From: Candidatus Bathyarchaeota archaeon
GTDB taxonomy: Archaea > Thermoproteota > Bathyarchaeia > 40CM-2-53-6
NCBI GenBank assembly: GCA_963726255.1
Contig: CAVSBL010000002.1
Location: 480,001-544,000 of the forward strand
Length of the DNA: 64,000 nucleotides
Reading direction: 5' to 3'
The number at the start of each line of letters is the position of its first letter. Position 1 is the first letter of the stretch. The notes under the pieces are model-generated. The model saw nothing but the letters and a program-made list of their open reading frames with translations. It was not told where the DNA came from and searched no databases. Both the position numbers and the translations under genes were made by a program. Below, piece after piece: positions 21,014 through 25,778 of this stretch.

Positions 21014-21466
21014 TTACCAAATGCCGCATTCCGCACTGGCACTACATGTTTCTCTCAGCTTCCTCAGCAAAGCGCTATCCCTCGACAGGCGCCGAAGAGT
21101 TTTGCTGGTTACGCCGGCGACTTCCAGCTTGTCGAAGGGTAAAAGTTTCAGAATGATGTTCGTGCACATTGTCAGCTCTTCCTGACTAAGCGAAGCCTCC
21201 GCATTGGCTAGCACAGCCGCCATGGTTGCAGTAACGAATGCGTCGCCAATAGTCACATCCTTCAGGCGAGTTCCTTTAGCTGCCTTCGTGAACAGTTTCA
21301 CGAGGTTGTTTCCGATTTCTTCACGCATTTCGTCGGAGAGAATGTACCCTTGTACGGGTATGAAAGTTTCAGGGTCCTTCGTACTCTTTCTCATGATTAT
21401 TCCCCGTTCAAGCATCCAAGATAGGGCAGCTGCAGGTGTGCCCCCTTCGAATATCACGTGCTGCAT
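21014..21466 (-). CDS. hypothetical protein
   Basis: 150-aa ORF with protein-like composition, downstream of fusA in the same orientation. Confidence 0.55.
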   Translation of the reverse strand: MQHVIFEGGTPAAALSWMLERGIIMRKSTKDPETFIPVQGYILSDEMREEIGNNLVKLFTKAAKGTRLKDVTIGDAFVTATMAAVLANAEASLSQEELTMCTNIILKLLPFDKLEVAGVTSKTLRRLSRDSALLRKLRETCSASAECGIW

Positions 21467-21493
21467 GGATGCATTCCTTGCAAACTGATCAGG

Positions 21494-21988
21494 CTAGGCA
21501 CCCACCATTCCCTGGTGCTCTTGTCGTCGCAAGTCAGTGGCATGTGTGGGAAGATCGAGTAAGAGTGCCCTGGCGACATCGATGGTTTCTTCCTTTGCCT
21601 TGTCGGCCAGTCCGTCGGCGAGTTTCGAAACTTGTCGGAGAGGTGGCGAGATTTCGCACAGAGCGTCAATTTCACCTTCGAACTCTTTGAAGATGAATCC
21701 GTCAGCGCAGATTCCGCTCAACATCTCCCCCATCATTCTCTTCGATCGCTTTGTGACTACGTACTGGGCTGAATCAAGCTCCTCAAGCAGTGTGCAGAGT
21801 CCTTTATCGTCCGCGGAGAATTGCTTGGCTGAACCTTCGGAGACCTGCATTGCCTGCTTAACGAGTTTCGGCCGGTAACCTGGTCGTCCCATAAAGCGTC
21901 TCACATATTTTTCAGCTTCTAGAATCGGGACCCTATCGATGAGGCGCACGCGGGGAAGAGAAAGAAGGGTTTCAATTGGGCGTGGCAT
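21494..21988 (-). CDS. hypothetical protein
   Basis: 164-aa ORF with an ATG start and a TATA-like TTATAA about 30 nt upstream. Confidence 0.6.
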   Translation of the reverse strand: MPRPIETLLSLPRVRLIDRVPILEAEKYVRRFMGRPGYRPKLVKQAMQVSEGSAKQFSADDKGLCTLLEELDSAQYVVTKRSKRMMGEMLSGICADGFIFKEFEGEIDALCEISPPLRQVSKLADGLADKAKEETIDVARALLLDLPTHATDLRRQEHQGMVGA

Positions 21989-22049: not shown

Positions 22050-24268
22050 CTACGCTTCCATGAAGTCTTCTGCCTTTTGTGGTTCAGGTGGTAGGCCCTT
22101 GCGTTCGCGTATGCCCGTGATGACCTGGTTGATCAACGATTGCGGTACAGGTGCCCAGTGGGCGAACTCCAACCCCCAGAATGCCCGGCCTTGAGAAGCG
22201 CCCCGCATAACCTCTGAGAGGTCAAAGCTCTCAGCTGTGGGCAACTCCCCTACTACATAGACGAGGTGCCCGCGCTGGTCTACTGAAACGATTTTCCCAC
22301 GTTTCTGCGAGATTACACTTGTTGCGGCTCCAAGTAGCTCTGGGGGTACCTTCACCGTGATTCTTTGGACTGGTTCCAGCAGAACTGGGTTTGCGCTGAG
22401 GAATGCGACGAAGAATGCCCTTCTACTCATTGGCATGATCTGCGCTGGGCCTCTGTGGACGGGGTCTTCATGGAGTGAAATGTCCGTAACCTTCACCTTC
22501 ACGCCTCGGATTTGCTCATACGCAAGTGGGCCTTCCTTGAGTCCCCAACGGTAACCTGCAATAACCATTTCCTTAACCTCTTGGACGTACTGGGCTCCTT
22601 TCGTCACTTCCACAAGCATGTTGCTCCCTTCGTCAACGCTCCAAACCCCACGGGCTTCGTCGGGGGGCCATCCTTCCTCGCGAAGTATCTTTGCCATTTC
22701 GTGGCGGTCTTGGTATTCTCCAATCTTGCCCTCTTTGAGCATGCTGATTATCTTGTCAGGTAGAGGCTCGACGGAGAGGTAGATCTTGTTGTGTTTGTTT
22801 GGCGATTTGCCTTCCACAGGGCCGGCGGTGCCTCTGATGCTTTCGCGGTAGATTACGATCGGTTTGGAGGTTACGATTTCCAAACCGGTTTTCGTTATCA
22901 GCGTGTTAGCTATTTCCAAGTGCAGTGTGCCCATTCCGGCTATGAGGTACTCGCCGGTTTCTTCGTTGATCTTCGTCACGAGGTTTGGGTCTTCGAGGCT
23001 AAGCCTGCGGAGTAGCTCCACGAGCTTAGGAAGGTCCCTGCTGTATTTCGGTTCGACTGCCATCGTAACTACGGGTTCCGTAACGTAATGGACGGCTTCG
23101 AAGGGTGCTATGTCCTTTATCGTCGACAGTGTTTCTCCGGCCTTTGCTGCATCGAGCCCTAGGAGGGCGGGGATGTTGCCAGCGCTTATTGTCCCCACGA
23201 TTTCGCGGTAGGGCCCCATGAATATGCATACTTGCTGAACCCTTTGGTCCACCCTCGCGCCAAGTAGGTGGAAGGTTGATCCTTCCGTGATTGTTCCTGA
23301 GAATAATCTTCCACTGGCAACTACTCCTGCCTGCGGGTCAACCACAATGTTCGTAATCGCCATGACCACGGGACCGTTGTCGTCACAATTCATCATAGCT
23401 TTGCCGACTTCGCTGTCTATGTTCCCCTTCCAAATCTTCGGAATCCGATACTTCTGTGCCACATGTGGCGGGGGCAAATGCTCCACGGCCATGTTGAGGA
23501 TGGCATCGTCAAGCGAGGCCCGCTCTCTTAGTTCGCTTACCTTTTCGTTCAGGTAGGCGTCGACGACATCTGAGAATTTGACATTCTTCTCCTTCGCAAT
23601 TTCCGCGTTGAAACCCCATCGGTCCTTGGCCGAACCCATGGCTACAGTGTTGGTTGCGAAGCTTACCTTCCATATCTCACGGTACTCGGGCTCAGCGTAG
23701 AGCTCGATGAGGCGGTTAAACTCGGTGATTATGCGCCCGATTCTCTCCTGAATCTGCTCGGGGGACAGTCTCAATTCCTTGATGAGGCGGTCAATCTTGT
23801 TAATGTAAAGCAAAGGCCGAACACGTTCCTCAAGCGCCTGCCTCGTCACCGTCTCCGTCTGAACCATAATCTCCTCAACAGAATCCACAACTACAACTGC
23901 GCCGTCAATCGCCCTAAGCGAGCGAGTCACTCTTCCTGAGAAGTCAACGTGGCCGGGGGTGTCGATTAGGTTGATGACGTAGGGGGTACCATTCCTCTCA
24001 TGGAGTAGGCTCACGTTCGCGGCCTTGATGGTCATCTGCCGCTTTTGCTCTTCTTCCATGTAGTCTAGGGCTAGTGCTGTCCCAGCCATGCCTGGTGACA
24101 GAAGGCCAGCAGCCGCAAGGAGGGAGTCGCTCATCGTCGTCTTGCCGTGGTCGACGTGGGCGATTATACCCATATCTTCCGGACGCAGCAACTAGGCTAC
24201 GTCATTCGGATTTGGTCCTTGTTAGCTATGATCCTCTGTATTTCCGTCGTAGATTTGTAACGGGGCAT
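22050..24268 (-). CDS. fusA: translation elongation factor aEF-2, spliced from exon 1 (24268-24205) and exon 2 (24175-22050), 729 aa
   Basis: AHVDHGKTT, DTPGHVDF and NKID motifs, plus the diphthamide loop HEDPVHRGPAQ. The N-terminus MPRYKSTTEIQRIIANKDQIR lies in another frame and joins after removal of a 29-nt BHB intron. Confidence 0.96.
24176..24204 (-). other. bulge-helix-bulge intron in EF-2 mRNA
   Basis: Intron UGACGUAGCCUAGUUGCUGCGUCCGGAAG. The central helix is UCCG/CGGA, the bulges are AA|U and AG|A, and the inner stem is GACGUAGC/GCUGCGUC (8 bp). Splicing gives CGA-AAU-AUG-GGU (R-N-M-G). Confidence 0.9.
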
Positions 24269-24485
24269 ATTTTCTCAACTCTGCTCCGAAATCGCGATGG
24301 CAACATAACTCGATGTCATTAAAGCATTACTGTCTGGTGCCTCGTCAAGCCTCGGTCGGTTCAACCGAAAATCGGTCGTTGTGAAGCATCATAGGGTGGC
24401 TTGTGCGAATCCACGGCAGGAGAATTTCAGTATAGTTTTCCACAGAGAAAAGATCTGTAACGCATGATGAAACATTCAGCATGGG

Positions 24486-24623
24486 TCAGCAGGGTGCGAA
24501 CCAGGTACAGCCGAAAATTCTGAGCACCCATAGCATGTAACCCGCGAACAGCCCAATCAAGATGCCCGCCATTAGGGCAAAGAAGATGACCGCACCCAAT
24601 TTTCCTTCGGTTACAACGGACAT
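24486..24623 (-). CDS. small membrane protein (45 aa)
   Basis: Manual translation MSVVTEGKLGAVIFFALMAGILIGLFAGYMLWVLRIFGCTWFAPC, with one long hydrophobic helix. Confidence 0.55.
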   Translation of the reverse strand: MSVVTEGKLGAVIFFALMAGILIGLFAGYMLWVLRIFGCTWFAPC

Positions 24624-24734
24624 AGAAGCCACTTTGTCGGCACGGAATAAAACGGTTTGCAAATGGGTCGCCTTGGTGTGTGAACATGGTTAATTTGTCG
24701 CCTGTGAGTTCCAAGGAGTTTAGGTAGTTGGCCT

Positions 24735-25778
24735 TTGGGTTTCAACCTCTCCCCGCTCGTTGTTAAGCGGCAGCTGCGGTTGGATGACCTGAAGGGGCGA
24801 AGCCTCGCCGTTGACGCCAACAATATGCTCTACCAATTCCTCGCGCTAATCCGCATGCGGGACGGAAGGCCATTCACCGACTCGAAGGGCAACGTTACTT
24901 CGCACTTGGTTGGATTACTTCTTCGCACGACGCGTTTGATGGCAGATTATGGGATACGCCCAGTGTTCGTTTTTGATGGGAAGCCACCTGCGATGAAGAT
25001 GCGGACCTTGGAAGCACGGCGCCAGTACAGGGAAAAGGCGCGGAAGGAGTGGGAAACGGCTGTCCAACGCGGCGACTACTCAGCGGCTTGGTCGAAAGCG
25101 GTAAGGATGAACTCGCTGACGCAACCGATGCAAGAGGATGCTAGGAAACTGCTCGGGCTGCTTGGCGTCCCTTACGTTCAAGCCCCGCAAGAGGGTGAGG
25201 CTCAGGCTGCCCACATGGCGTCCAAGGGTGATGTCTGGGCTGCGAATAGCCGGGACTATGACTCTGTACTTTTCGGTGCTCCTCGGCTAGTTCGGTATGT
25301 AACGATATCTGGGCAAGAATTCTTGCCAAGCAAAGGAATCGCCCGCCCGCTCATACCTGAACTAATTGAACTTAACCAACTCCTGACGGCGCTAGGAATA
25401 ACTCGAGAGCAACTGATCGACCTAGCCATCCTAGTAGGGACCGACTTTAACCAAGGAGTTCGGGGAGTCGGACCTAAAACAGCCCTGAAACTCATCAGGG
25501 AACATGGAGGTCTTGAGAAACTGCCGGACCGATTCAAAACTCAGCTTCCTAACAACATTCAAGCGATACGCACAATCTTCCTCCACCCAGATGTAAGGGA
25601 GGATTACGAGATTCAATTCAAAGGCATGGACGAAGAAGGCCTCAGGAAATTCCTCTGCGAAGAACGTGGGTTCTCCCCAGATAGGGTCAATCTCGCAATT
25701 GAACGAATGCGAGCATTCTACGCCAAAGACCGTTCAACCCTCCAAAGCTGGCTAGGGGGCAACCAAGGAGGAGCATGA
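24735..25778 (+). CDS. fen: flap endonuclease 1
   Basis: DANNMLYQFL, FVFDGKPP, EGEAQAA, DYDSVLFG, GTDFN and a C-terminal PIP-like STLQSWL. Confidence 0.97.
   Translation: MGFNLSPLVVKRQLRLDDLKGRSLAVDANNMLYQFLALIRMRDGRPFTDSKGNVTSHLVGLLLRTTRLMADYGIRPVFVFDGKPPAMKMRTLEARRQYREKARKEWETAVQRGDYSAAWSKAVRMNSLTQPMQEDARKLLGLLGVPYVQAPQEGEAQAAHMASKGDVWAANSRDYDSVLFGAPRLVRYVTISGQEFLPSKGIARPLIPELIELNQLLTALGITREQLIDLAILVGTDFNQGVRGVGPKTALKLIREHGGLEKLPDRFKTQLPNNIQAIRTIFLHPDVREDYEIQFKGMDEEGLRKFLCEERGFSPDRVNLAIERMRAFYAKDRSTLQSWLGGNQGGA

Follow-up and report, generated by a model that had tools for sequence, protein, structure and literature searches.

The EF-2 locus

The window analysed here, a stretch of 64,000 nucleotides from a Candidatus Bathyarchaeota archaeon (assembly GCA_963726255.1, contig CAVSBL010000002.1, positions 480,001 to 544,000), carries on its minus strand the gene for elongation factor EF-2, which appears to be interrupted near its start by a short intron of the kind that archaea remove from tRNA. 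In the list of open reading frames (ORFs), two minus-strand ORFs in different frames correspond to EF-2: a mini-ORF of 23 codons (24268..24197), which starts at ATG 24268, translates as MPRYKSTTEIQRIIANKDQIRMT and ends with TAG, and a long ORF (22050..24191) that begins with MLRPEDMGIIAH (MLRPEDMGIIAHVDHGKTT). The minus-strand DNA across the two frames reads ATG(24268) CCC CGT ... ATC CGA A/TGACGTAGCCTAGTTGCTGCGTCCGGAAG/AT ATG GGT ATA ATC GCC CAC GTC GAC CAC GGC AAG, where the slashes mark the ends of the insert, and the frame of the mini-ORF gives MPRYKSTTEIQRIIANKDQIR followed by MT-stop.

The archaeal EF-2 equivalog profile TIGR00490 matches the long ORF from MGIIAH onwards with 885 bits (profile positions 22-720 of 720). 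As the match starts at position 22, it lacks 21 N-terminal positions, precisely as many as the mini-ORF has codons before the junction, and this segment aligns with the N-termini of EF-2 proteins from Bathyarchaeia that have no insert. The rest of the EF-2 ORF is intact. The genome (2.42 Mb, 98.5% complete) holds a single EF-2 gene, the sole other match in it being a distant GTPase (E = 3e-7); a second intact fusA gene, which an earlier note on this DNA had named, together with transcripts that are never spliced, as a finding that would speak against an intron, is not present in the genome. The predicted elements of the locus are as follows.

24205..24268, minus strand: exon 1 of EF-2, comprising ATG 24268, 21 codons (MPRYKSTTEIQRIIANKDQIR) and A24205, the first base of a split Asn codon
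24176..24204, minus strand: putative 29-nt bulge-helix-bulge (BHB) intron (UGACGUAGCCUAGUUGCUGCGUCCGGAAG), which includes an in-frame UAG (24199-24197)
22050..24175, minus strand: exon 2 of EF-2, comprising AU (the remainder of the Asn codon), then MGIIAHVDHGKTT... through the stop codon
24207..24210, minus strand: 5' strand of the central 4-bp helix, UCCG, in exon 1 (spanning the end of the Ile codon and the beginning of the Arg codon)
24178..24181, minus strand: 3' strand of the central 4-bp helix, CGGA, inside the intron
24204..24206, minus strand: 5' bulge AA/U, predicted EndA cut between 24205 and 24204
24175..24177, minus strand: 3' bulge AG/A, predicted EndA cut between 24176 and 24175
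24182..24203, minus strand: inner helix of 8 bp, GACGUAGC (24203-24196) with GCUGCGUC (24189-24182), closed by a 6-nt loop (24195-24190)
24170..24174, minus strand: 3' strand of the outer helix, UAUGG, in exon 2, pairing imperfectly with CCAAA (24215-24211), with one A.A mismatch

Structure of the insert

Two 3-nt bulges on opposite strands surround a 4-bp helix, as in a BHB motif. The earlier note had described these helices and bulges from the letters alone; all of them were recovered, and together they are the unconstrained minimum free energy (MFE) fold of 24222-24165 (dG -18 kcal/mol, z -2.52, with 4/200 shuffles as good). With respect to the hBHBh' form of the motif, the inner side is strict (8 bp, covarying) and the outer side is relaxed. 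When each bulge is cut behind its second base, the frame is restored as IR-N-MGIIAH, with the junction codon A/AU (Asn) located just before the P-loop. A ribosome translating the unspliced RNA meets the in-frame UAG (24199-24197), which gives a product of 23 aa; the short peptide that had been predicted for the unspliced RNA thus stands, while the UGA and the length of 22 aa given for it do not. One hairpin at a z-score of -2.5 could be a product of chance, but its conservation and covariation in relatives place it beyond chance.

The same insert in related genomes

The comparison covered 41 related genomes and then 105 genomes of the order, 84 of which have an EF-2 match at E <= 1e-100. The protein matches fell into three states: some begin near residue 20-22 of the intron-less probe, some are full-length with a single internal stop, and the rest are full-length and clean. 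The EF-2 5' regions of 65 genes were classified by script, with loci L017, L018, L030, L031 and L141 outside the classification (contig ends, or an intein before the anchor), and L146, which has the insert and a divergent exon 1, was placed by hand. The insert is found at the identical codon, after the first base of the Asn codon downstream of Arg-21, in 55 of the 65 classified genes, and a 29-nt BHB insert is also present in G001 (L017), which was read by eye.

The other ten genes (L020/G037, L027/G026, L135/G057, L136/G048, L137/G058, L138/G063, L139/G041, L140/G056, L150/G049 and L152/G062) are free of the insert and have the continuous sequence ...Q(I/V)R-N-(I/M/L)GIIAHVDHGKTT at the predicted junction, so that N-(I/M/L)GIIAH is read across the site. 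Full-length EF-2 proteins of Bathyarchaeia in the database (728-730 aa) open with MPRFKTT..QIRNIGIIAHVDHGKTT; P0056, P0059 and P0104 start (M/V)PRFKTTADI(M/V)KIIQNK(E/D)Q(I/V)RN(I/V)GIIAHVDHGKTT, and P0066 and P0081 are similar. Because the intron-less relatives read the predicted junction, the product predicted for cuts after the second bulge base is the normal protein of close relatives. Among the matches listed in a contig search, which were mostly bacterial EF-G, some 15 loci from archaea could be used, none of which has the intron.

When the EndA rule is applied in silico, an in-frame ...R-N-(M/I)GIIAH is obtained for all 55 inserts, with AAU as the junction codon in 52 and AAC in 3. The inserts are 25-54 nt long, with lengths that leave a remainder of 0, 1 and 2 on division by three in 16, 20 and 19 genes, respectively, and a stop in the frame of exon 1 occurs within the insert in all 54 distinct sequences (UAG 46, UAA 5, UGA 3). 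This length spectrum and the universal stop cannot be explained by a frameshift of fixed size or by read-through, and they indicate that the insert is not translated sequence.

Exon 1 varies mostly at third positions, the summed column entropies over codons 2-21 being 8.4 at the first, 6.4 at the second and 23.1 at the third codon position, and its start codon is ATG in 32, TTG in 12, GTG in 9 and CTG in 1 of the 54 sequences scored. By this measure, exon 1 evolves as protein-coding sequence. The comparison of fusA among relatives that the earlier note had proposed as a check thus yielded both presence and absence of the intron (55 versus 10 of 65) and, as described below, covariation in the stem.

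Covariation and structural conservation

In the 54 distinct sequences the central helix is always paired, as UCCG/CGGA in 49 and as UCCG/CGGG (with a U.G pair) in 5, and both bulges are invariably 3 nt long. The first bulge is AAA in 44 sequences, UAA in 6 and AAU in 4; the second is more diverse (AUA 25, AGA 15, AAA 6, ACA 5, UAA 2, CAA 1). The BHB core lies within the unconstrained MFE fold of 46 of the 54.

Covariation was computed on alignment A1 with the structure proposed in the earlier note, against column shuffles and against controls in which the pairing partner was slid along the alignment. In A1, 84.7% of cells are paired, compared with 78.0% in the column shuffles, and double-sided changes were counted in 77 cells, compared with 26.8 +/- 4.6; values as high as these arose in 0 of the 500 shuffles. 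When the partner was slid by 1-3 columns, only 8-20 cells with double changes and 24-50% pairing remained. Within the inner helix, double changes occur at 6 of the 8 pairs, for example A-U 30/G-C 16/G-U 5 at one and C-G 33/U-A 15/U-G 5 at another. These substitution patterns indicate that the BHB structure is under selection.

The stop codon shows a conservation of its own. At columns 20-22 of A1 (24199-24197 in the window), the U and A of the UAG show a conservation of 90% or more, while in 22 and 23 of the 54 sequences, respectively, the opposite base does not pair with them. This conservation beyond the need for pairing may reflect selection for early termination on the unspliced RNA, or simply shared descent.

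Splicing enzymes and a second intron gene, cbf5

Both the endonuclease and the RNA ligase of BHB splicing are encoded by the organism. Two ORFs of the EndA family, of 188 and 187 aa (L032:1468-2034, minus strand, and L033:1204-1767, plus strand), each have an N-terminal and a catalytic domain. The best matches of the first are the PDB chains 3p1z_B, 3ajv_B, 2cv8_A and 2zyz_B, deposited as tRNA-splicing endonuclease. The enzymes in 3p1z, 3ajv and 2cv8 are crenarchaeal, as is that in 2zyz, PMC2724299 being the structure paper on the P. aerophilum endonuclease. The other ORF is more divergent, and its Tyr-His-Lys stretch, as judged by eye only, lacks the His, which fits a structural subunit in an EndA of the two-subunit alpha/beta type. 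RtcB is encoded by one uninterrupted gene (L034).

The cbf5 gene of the same genome is also split, its profile positions 6-73 and 70-322 being matched in different frames 7 nt apart. An insert of 19 nt (C2:296552-296570, plus strand, equivalent to L175:1483-1501) lies within the codon for the catalytic Asp (G/AU) and can be folded into a BHB with the central helix CCCU/GGGG, the bulges AG/A and UA/A, and a 3-bp inner stem, GAC/GUC; its removal restores the motif AGHGGTL-D-PKVTGVLPVAL. The suggestion that other mRNA introns are hidden in this lineage is thus substantiated by cbf5. Among the genomes of the order, 56 have a cbf5 match, and in only 3 of these (G081, G083 and G084) does it run without interruption.

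The genome-wide BHB scan that had been proposed alongside recovered the EF-2 and cbf5 introns and, among the candidates examined, no new one. A strict scan returned 17,091 raw motifs and 148 short candidates, with EF-2 at rank 15, and missed cbf5 (19 nt, 3-bp inner stem). Under relaxed settings there were 73,563 raw motifs and 293 candidates, with cbf5 at rank 102 and EF-2 at rank 157, and these low positions mean that the ranking does not discriminate introns from operon junctions. Twenty candidates were searched against Pfam on both flanks; all are adjacent complete genes (for example RpoB/RpoA', PurS/PurQ, the end of MoeA, Trm112/RidA and two ABC ATPases) and reveal no new intron, while about 280 others, which may hold further mRNA introns, were not tested.

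No tRNA genes were found in the window. In its intron mode, ARAGORN called introns in most of the 35 tRNA genes of the genome, many of them implausible and on the kilobase scale, and these calls were not used to characterise tRNA introns. The tRNA set of the genome may be rich in introns.

A second EF-2 site and inteins

In G026 the usual insert is absent, and a canonical BHB insert of 42 nt lies six codons downstream (L027:252-293, plus strand), between the His and Val of AH/VDHGKTT. It is in phase 0, contains in-frame stops and has the central helix GCCC/GGGC and a long inner stem, and its fold (dG -24.7 kcal/mol, z -4.43) was matched by 0/200 shuffles. This insert is a second, independent intron site in EF-2.

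Very long open frames of EF-2, of 1061-1332 codons, were observed in G001, G023, G043, G046, G053, G054, G055, G060 and G084; inteins were inspected only in G001 and at the C-terminal end of that in G023, and are presumed for the others from frame length. In G001 (L215, L017), which belongs to the genus of the window, the insertion begins with Cys after AHVDHGK, ends with VVHN before TTMSD, and holds a LAGLIDADG domain (E = 7.6e-21) and a C-terminal intein block. The 29-nt BHB intron lies in the same gene, 11 codons upstream of this intein, and the EF-2 of G001 therefore seems to depend on protein splicing as well as on RNA splicing.

Proposed mechanism and alternative explanations

The insert is very probably a tRNA-type BHB intron in the pre-mRNA of a single-copy EF-2 gene, spliced by EndA and RtcB. 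One RNA would be transcribed from upstream of ATG 24268, and the UCCG of exon 1 would pair with the CGGA at the 3' end of the insert, forming the two 3-nt bulges and the inner hairpin. A two-subunit EndA of the alpha/beta type would then cut behind the second base of each bulge, after which RtcB would ligate the exons and would probably circularise the 29-nt intron. The mature mRNA would encode EF-2 in full length (about 729 aa), its junction codon A/AU (Asn) preceding the P-loop, while on the unspliced RNA the ribosome would halt at the in-frame UAG after 23 codons. The BHB intron that the earlier note had placed at 24176..24204 is corroborated by the same site in 55 of 65 relatives, the intron-less junctions, the covariation, the single EF-2 gene and the presence of EndA and RtcB, and it is most likely that the cell has to splice its EF-2 mRNA to make EF-2.

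Several observations weigh against this interpretation. A search with the whole gene listed no RNA sequencing run; cleavage, ligation and circularisation of the intron are all deduced from the comparison of sequences, and the compared genomes are assemblies, many of them fragmented. The z-score of the single-sequence fold is only modest (-2.52), the MFE fold lacks the central helix in 8 of the 54 relatives, and the outer helix is weak (one mismatch, A.A in the window, that is conserved; 75.9% of cells paired), so that the motif is of the relaxed rather than the strict hBHBh' form. The relatives are kin, and the shuffle statistics therefore overstate significance, a flaw of which the slid controls are free. 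In the genus of the window, finally, exon 2 opens with AU-AUG, and a truncated EF-2 could be made there from unspliced or merely cleaved RNA.

The last point leads to an explanation in which the exons are not ligated, and EF-2 is made without its first 21 residues from AUG 24173 or UUG 24191, the upstream 23-codon ORF being a leader peptide or a relic. The template would be the unspliced RNA or a nearly leaderless 3' fragment produced by EndA cleavage. The opening AU-AUG in the genus of the window fits this explanation, as do the public calls in close relatives (706/707 aa), which start at that Met, and the P-loop would still be included in such a protein. However, only 18 of the 55 intron-bearing genes have AUG as the first full codon of exon 2, so initiation directly after the insert cannot be the general route to EF-2; the other 37 have AUU (22), AUC (12) or AUA (3), and their next Met falls past the P-loop, at the start of the public gene calls of 693/694 aa. 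The intron-less gene of G063 also has Met at this position, which makes the Met a mere residue variant. Furthermore, exon 1 retains EF-2 N-terminal sequence with mostly third-position change and supplies precisely the 21 positions that the match to the aEF-2 profile lacks, the EndA cutting rule restores the frame for every insert of any length, and the BHB motif would be left unexplained. A truncated EF-2 as the normal product is therefore improbable.

Recoding, with no splicing of the RNA and with ribosomes that either hop over the insert, as in phage T4 gene 60, or change frame, is still less probable. A stop codon and a stable hairpin do follow right after what would be the take-off region, and this arrangement presumably resembles a bypass element superficially. 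The insert lengths of 25-54 nt in all three classes modulo 3 (16/20/19) nevertheless exclude a fixed frameshift, the stop lies three codons past the junction and not adjacent to it, and a ribosome that landed on the CGG of CCGGAA would not be in the frame of AUG GGU, leaving no in-frame landing codon. The conserved element is a 4-bp helix with two 3-nt bulges, that is, an EndA substrate, and not a matched pair of take-off and landing codons; a programmed frameshift or translational bypass was rejected on these grounds. An assembly or sequencing error, or decay of the gene into a pseudogene, has a next to negligible probability: the assemblies have an estimated contamination of up to about 9%, yet the feature recurs, in 54 distinct sequences, in 55 genomes that were assembled independently, and the gene is the sole EF-2 gene of its genome, the remainder of its ORF being intact and matching the aEF-2 equivalog with 885 bits. 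Two further candidates were considered and rejected. A self-splicing group I or group II intron, with its ribozyme core of hundreds of nucleotides, is incompatible with an insert of 25-54 nt, and the window has no Rfam match at all at the gathering threshold; an intein at the BHB site is excluded by the insert itself, which shifts the frame or holds stops in all 54 distinct variants.

Evolutionary history

Outside the order, 151 genomes of the class were searched, 140 of which had a match. Most of the sampled class members align from residue 1 with no stops, G177 among the intron-less ones, while G105, G126 and G130 (no P-loop anchor in the stretch) and G185 (contig end) gave no insert call. 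Three genomes, namely G107 (L207), G139 (L208) and G143 (L209), have an insert at the same site. Their central helices are compensated, as UUCG/CGAA in G107 and as UGCG/CGCG in G139 and G143, and in the latter two the frame is kept only by the canonical register of 4 bp and 3-nt bulges. At the junction of G139 and G143, Asp or Ala would be encoded in place of Asn.

The simplest history that these data suggest is an old gain followed by several precise losses (in the g2, g3 and g14 genera of the window's family, in family f6, and in G026). A more far-reaching reading holds that the EF-2 intron is ancient and selectively maintained as a checkpoint tying production of the elongation translocase to EndA and RtcB, and that BHB introns are mobile among conserved genes of Bathyarchaeia. 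Under this reading the intron predates the order, because outgroup families have it too, their central helix being compensated; the universal early in-frame stop and the UAG kept where its partner is not are cited in its favour, as are the signs of a hot spot, namely the second BHB intron in G026 and the homing-endonuclease intein at the P-loop codons. As a whole, the reading is tentative and rather unlikely. A coupling of elongation capacity to tRNA maturation through the intron, as the earlier note had raised, is speculation, and the sole observations bearing on a regulatory role are the early stop in every intron and the UAG columns that are more conserved than their pairing partners.

Gene neighbourhood and public annotation

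Directly downstream of EF-2 (21014-21988, minus strand) lie ORFs of 164 and 150 aa, and upstream (24427-24714, minus strand) lies an ORF of 95 aa; none of the three has a Pfam family. Further upstream, on the other strand (24735-25778), a flap endonuclease of the FEN-1/XPG type is encoded. No homing endonuclease was recognised in the genes neighbouring EF-2.

The public calls of intron-bearing EF-2 genes (P0002, P0038, P0050, P0057, P0065 and P0120) are systematically wrong at the N-terminus. The called proteins start at the Met after the intron (706/707 aa) or past the P-loop (693/694 aa), or else run into the intron (e.g., LLSPEYIGIIAH...). EF-2 is a common phylogenetic and completeness marker, and its mis-annotation in Bathyarchaeia assemblies matters for this reason.

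Relation to known systems

Watanabe in 2002 and Yoshinari in 2006 reportedly described a BHB intron in the cbf5 pre-mRNA. In the consulted portion of a 2009 survey, cbf5 introns are confined to Desulfurococcales and Sulfolobales, and none is listed for Thermoproteales, Cenarchaeum, Nitrosopumilus or Korarchaeum (Yokobori 2009, PMC2738675). The same portion gives the same cutting rule and a variable intron interior, and Bathyarchaeia do not figure in its sampling (PMC2738675). By that account, the EF-2 intron is like the cbf5 intron in its predicted cut between the second and third bulge residues and its highly variable interior, and also in the hetero-oligomeric EndA of its lineage and in a patchy presence and absence that suggests gain and loss. 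It differs in its host gene, an essential translation GTPase, in its lineage, Bathyarchaeia, and in its site, 21 codons from the start before the P-loop; in addition, cDNA and in vitro data support splicing for cbf5, whereas for EF-2 it is predicted.

Archaeal tRNA and rRNA introns share with the EF-2 intron the 4-bp helix between two 3-nt bulges, a similar size range and the predicted processing by EndA and RtcB. In contrast to these, the EF-2 intron resides in a messenger, its motif includes exon bases that double as codons (Ile-Arg-Asn, Met/Ile-Gly), and excision must be exact to the base to hold the frame.

The endonuclease of Haloferax volcanii is presumably of the homodimeric type. In this euryarchaeon, a BHB intron in the 5' untranslated region of the HVO_1309 mRNA was described in a 2020 study, the excerpted text of which names cbf5 as the only additional BHB intron reported until then (PMC7714728). 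HVO_1309 and, by prediction, EF-2 present an mRNA as a substrate of the archaeal splicing endonuclease; as far as that excerpt goes, the HVO_1309 intron differs in lying in an untranslated leader, where it interrupts no reading frame, and in its euryarchaeal host.

A further parallel is found in eukaryotes, where the HAC1/XBP1 mRNA is spliced in the cytoplasm by Ire1 together with tRNA ligase or RtcB under the control of stress. As is predicted for the EF-2 intron, these are short, non-spliceosomal mRNA introns that are handled by a protein endonuclease and then by a tRNA ligase, with a change in the reading frame and the protein. Unlike in EF-2, Ire1 and its RNA motif take the place of EndA and the BHB. 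The HAC1/XBP1 splicing is stress-regulated, whereas a regulatory role in EF-2 is speculative. The link between RtcB and XBP1 splicing is stated in the consulted part of PMC8718801.

For the mRNA case, only cbf5 papers are cited in the relevant passage of a 2025 structural paper (PMC12397907), and mRNA goes unmentioned in a 2026 preprint devoted to the tRNA introns of Asgard archaea. Neither an EF-2 BHB intron nor a cbf5 intron of Bathyarchaeia turned up in the full-text literature searched, the coverage of which does not extend to subscription-only papers. On the sequence evidence assembled here, the EF-2 insert is a real and new case of the rare BHB introns in archaeal protein-coding genes.

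Significance

In the searchable literature, cbf5 is the only gene documented with a BHB intron inside its reading frame, and it has been a textbook exception since 2002. The single EF-2 gene of this archaeon appears to depend on the tRNA-splicing enzymes, and the splicing of mRNA by these enzymes would therefore not be an oddity of cbf5. The EF-2 data form a clean evolutionary series, with an ancient presence, precise losses, a second site, and a gene (in G001) that would need both kinds of splicing. If the tentative reading of selective maintenance were true, BHB introns would be mobile in EF-2, at two sites, and in cbf5. The EF-2 intron offers a short, conserved and essential mRNA substrate with which a possible regulation of genes by EndA and RtcB in archaea can be tested directly.

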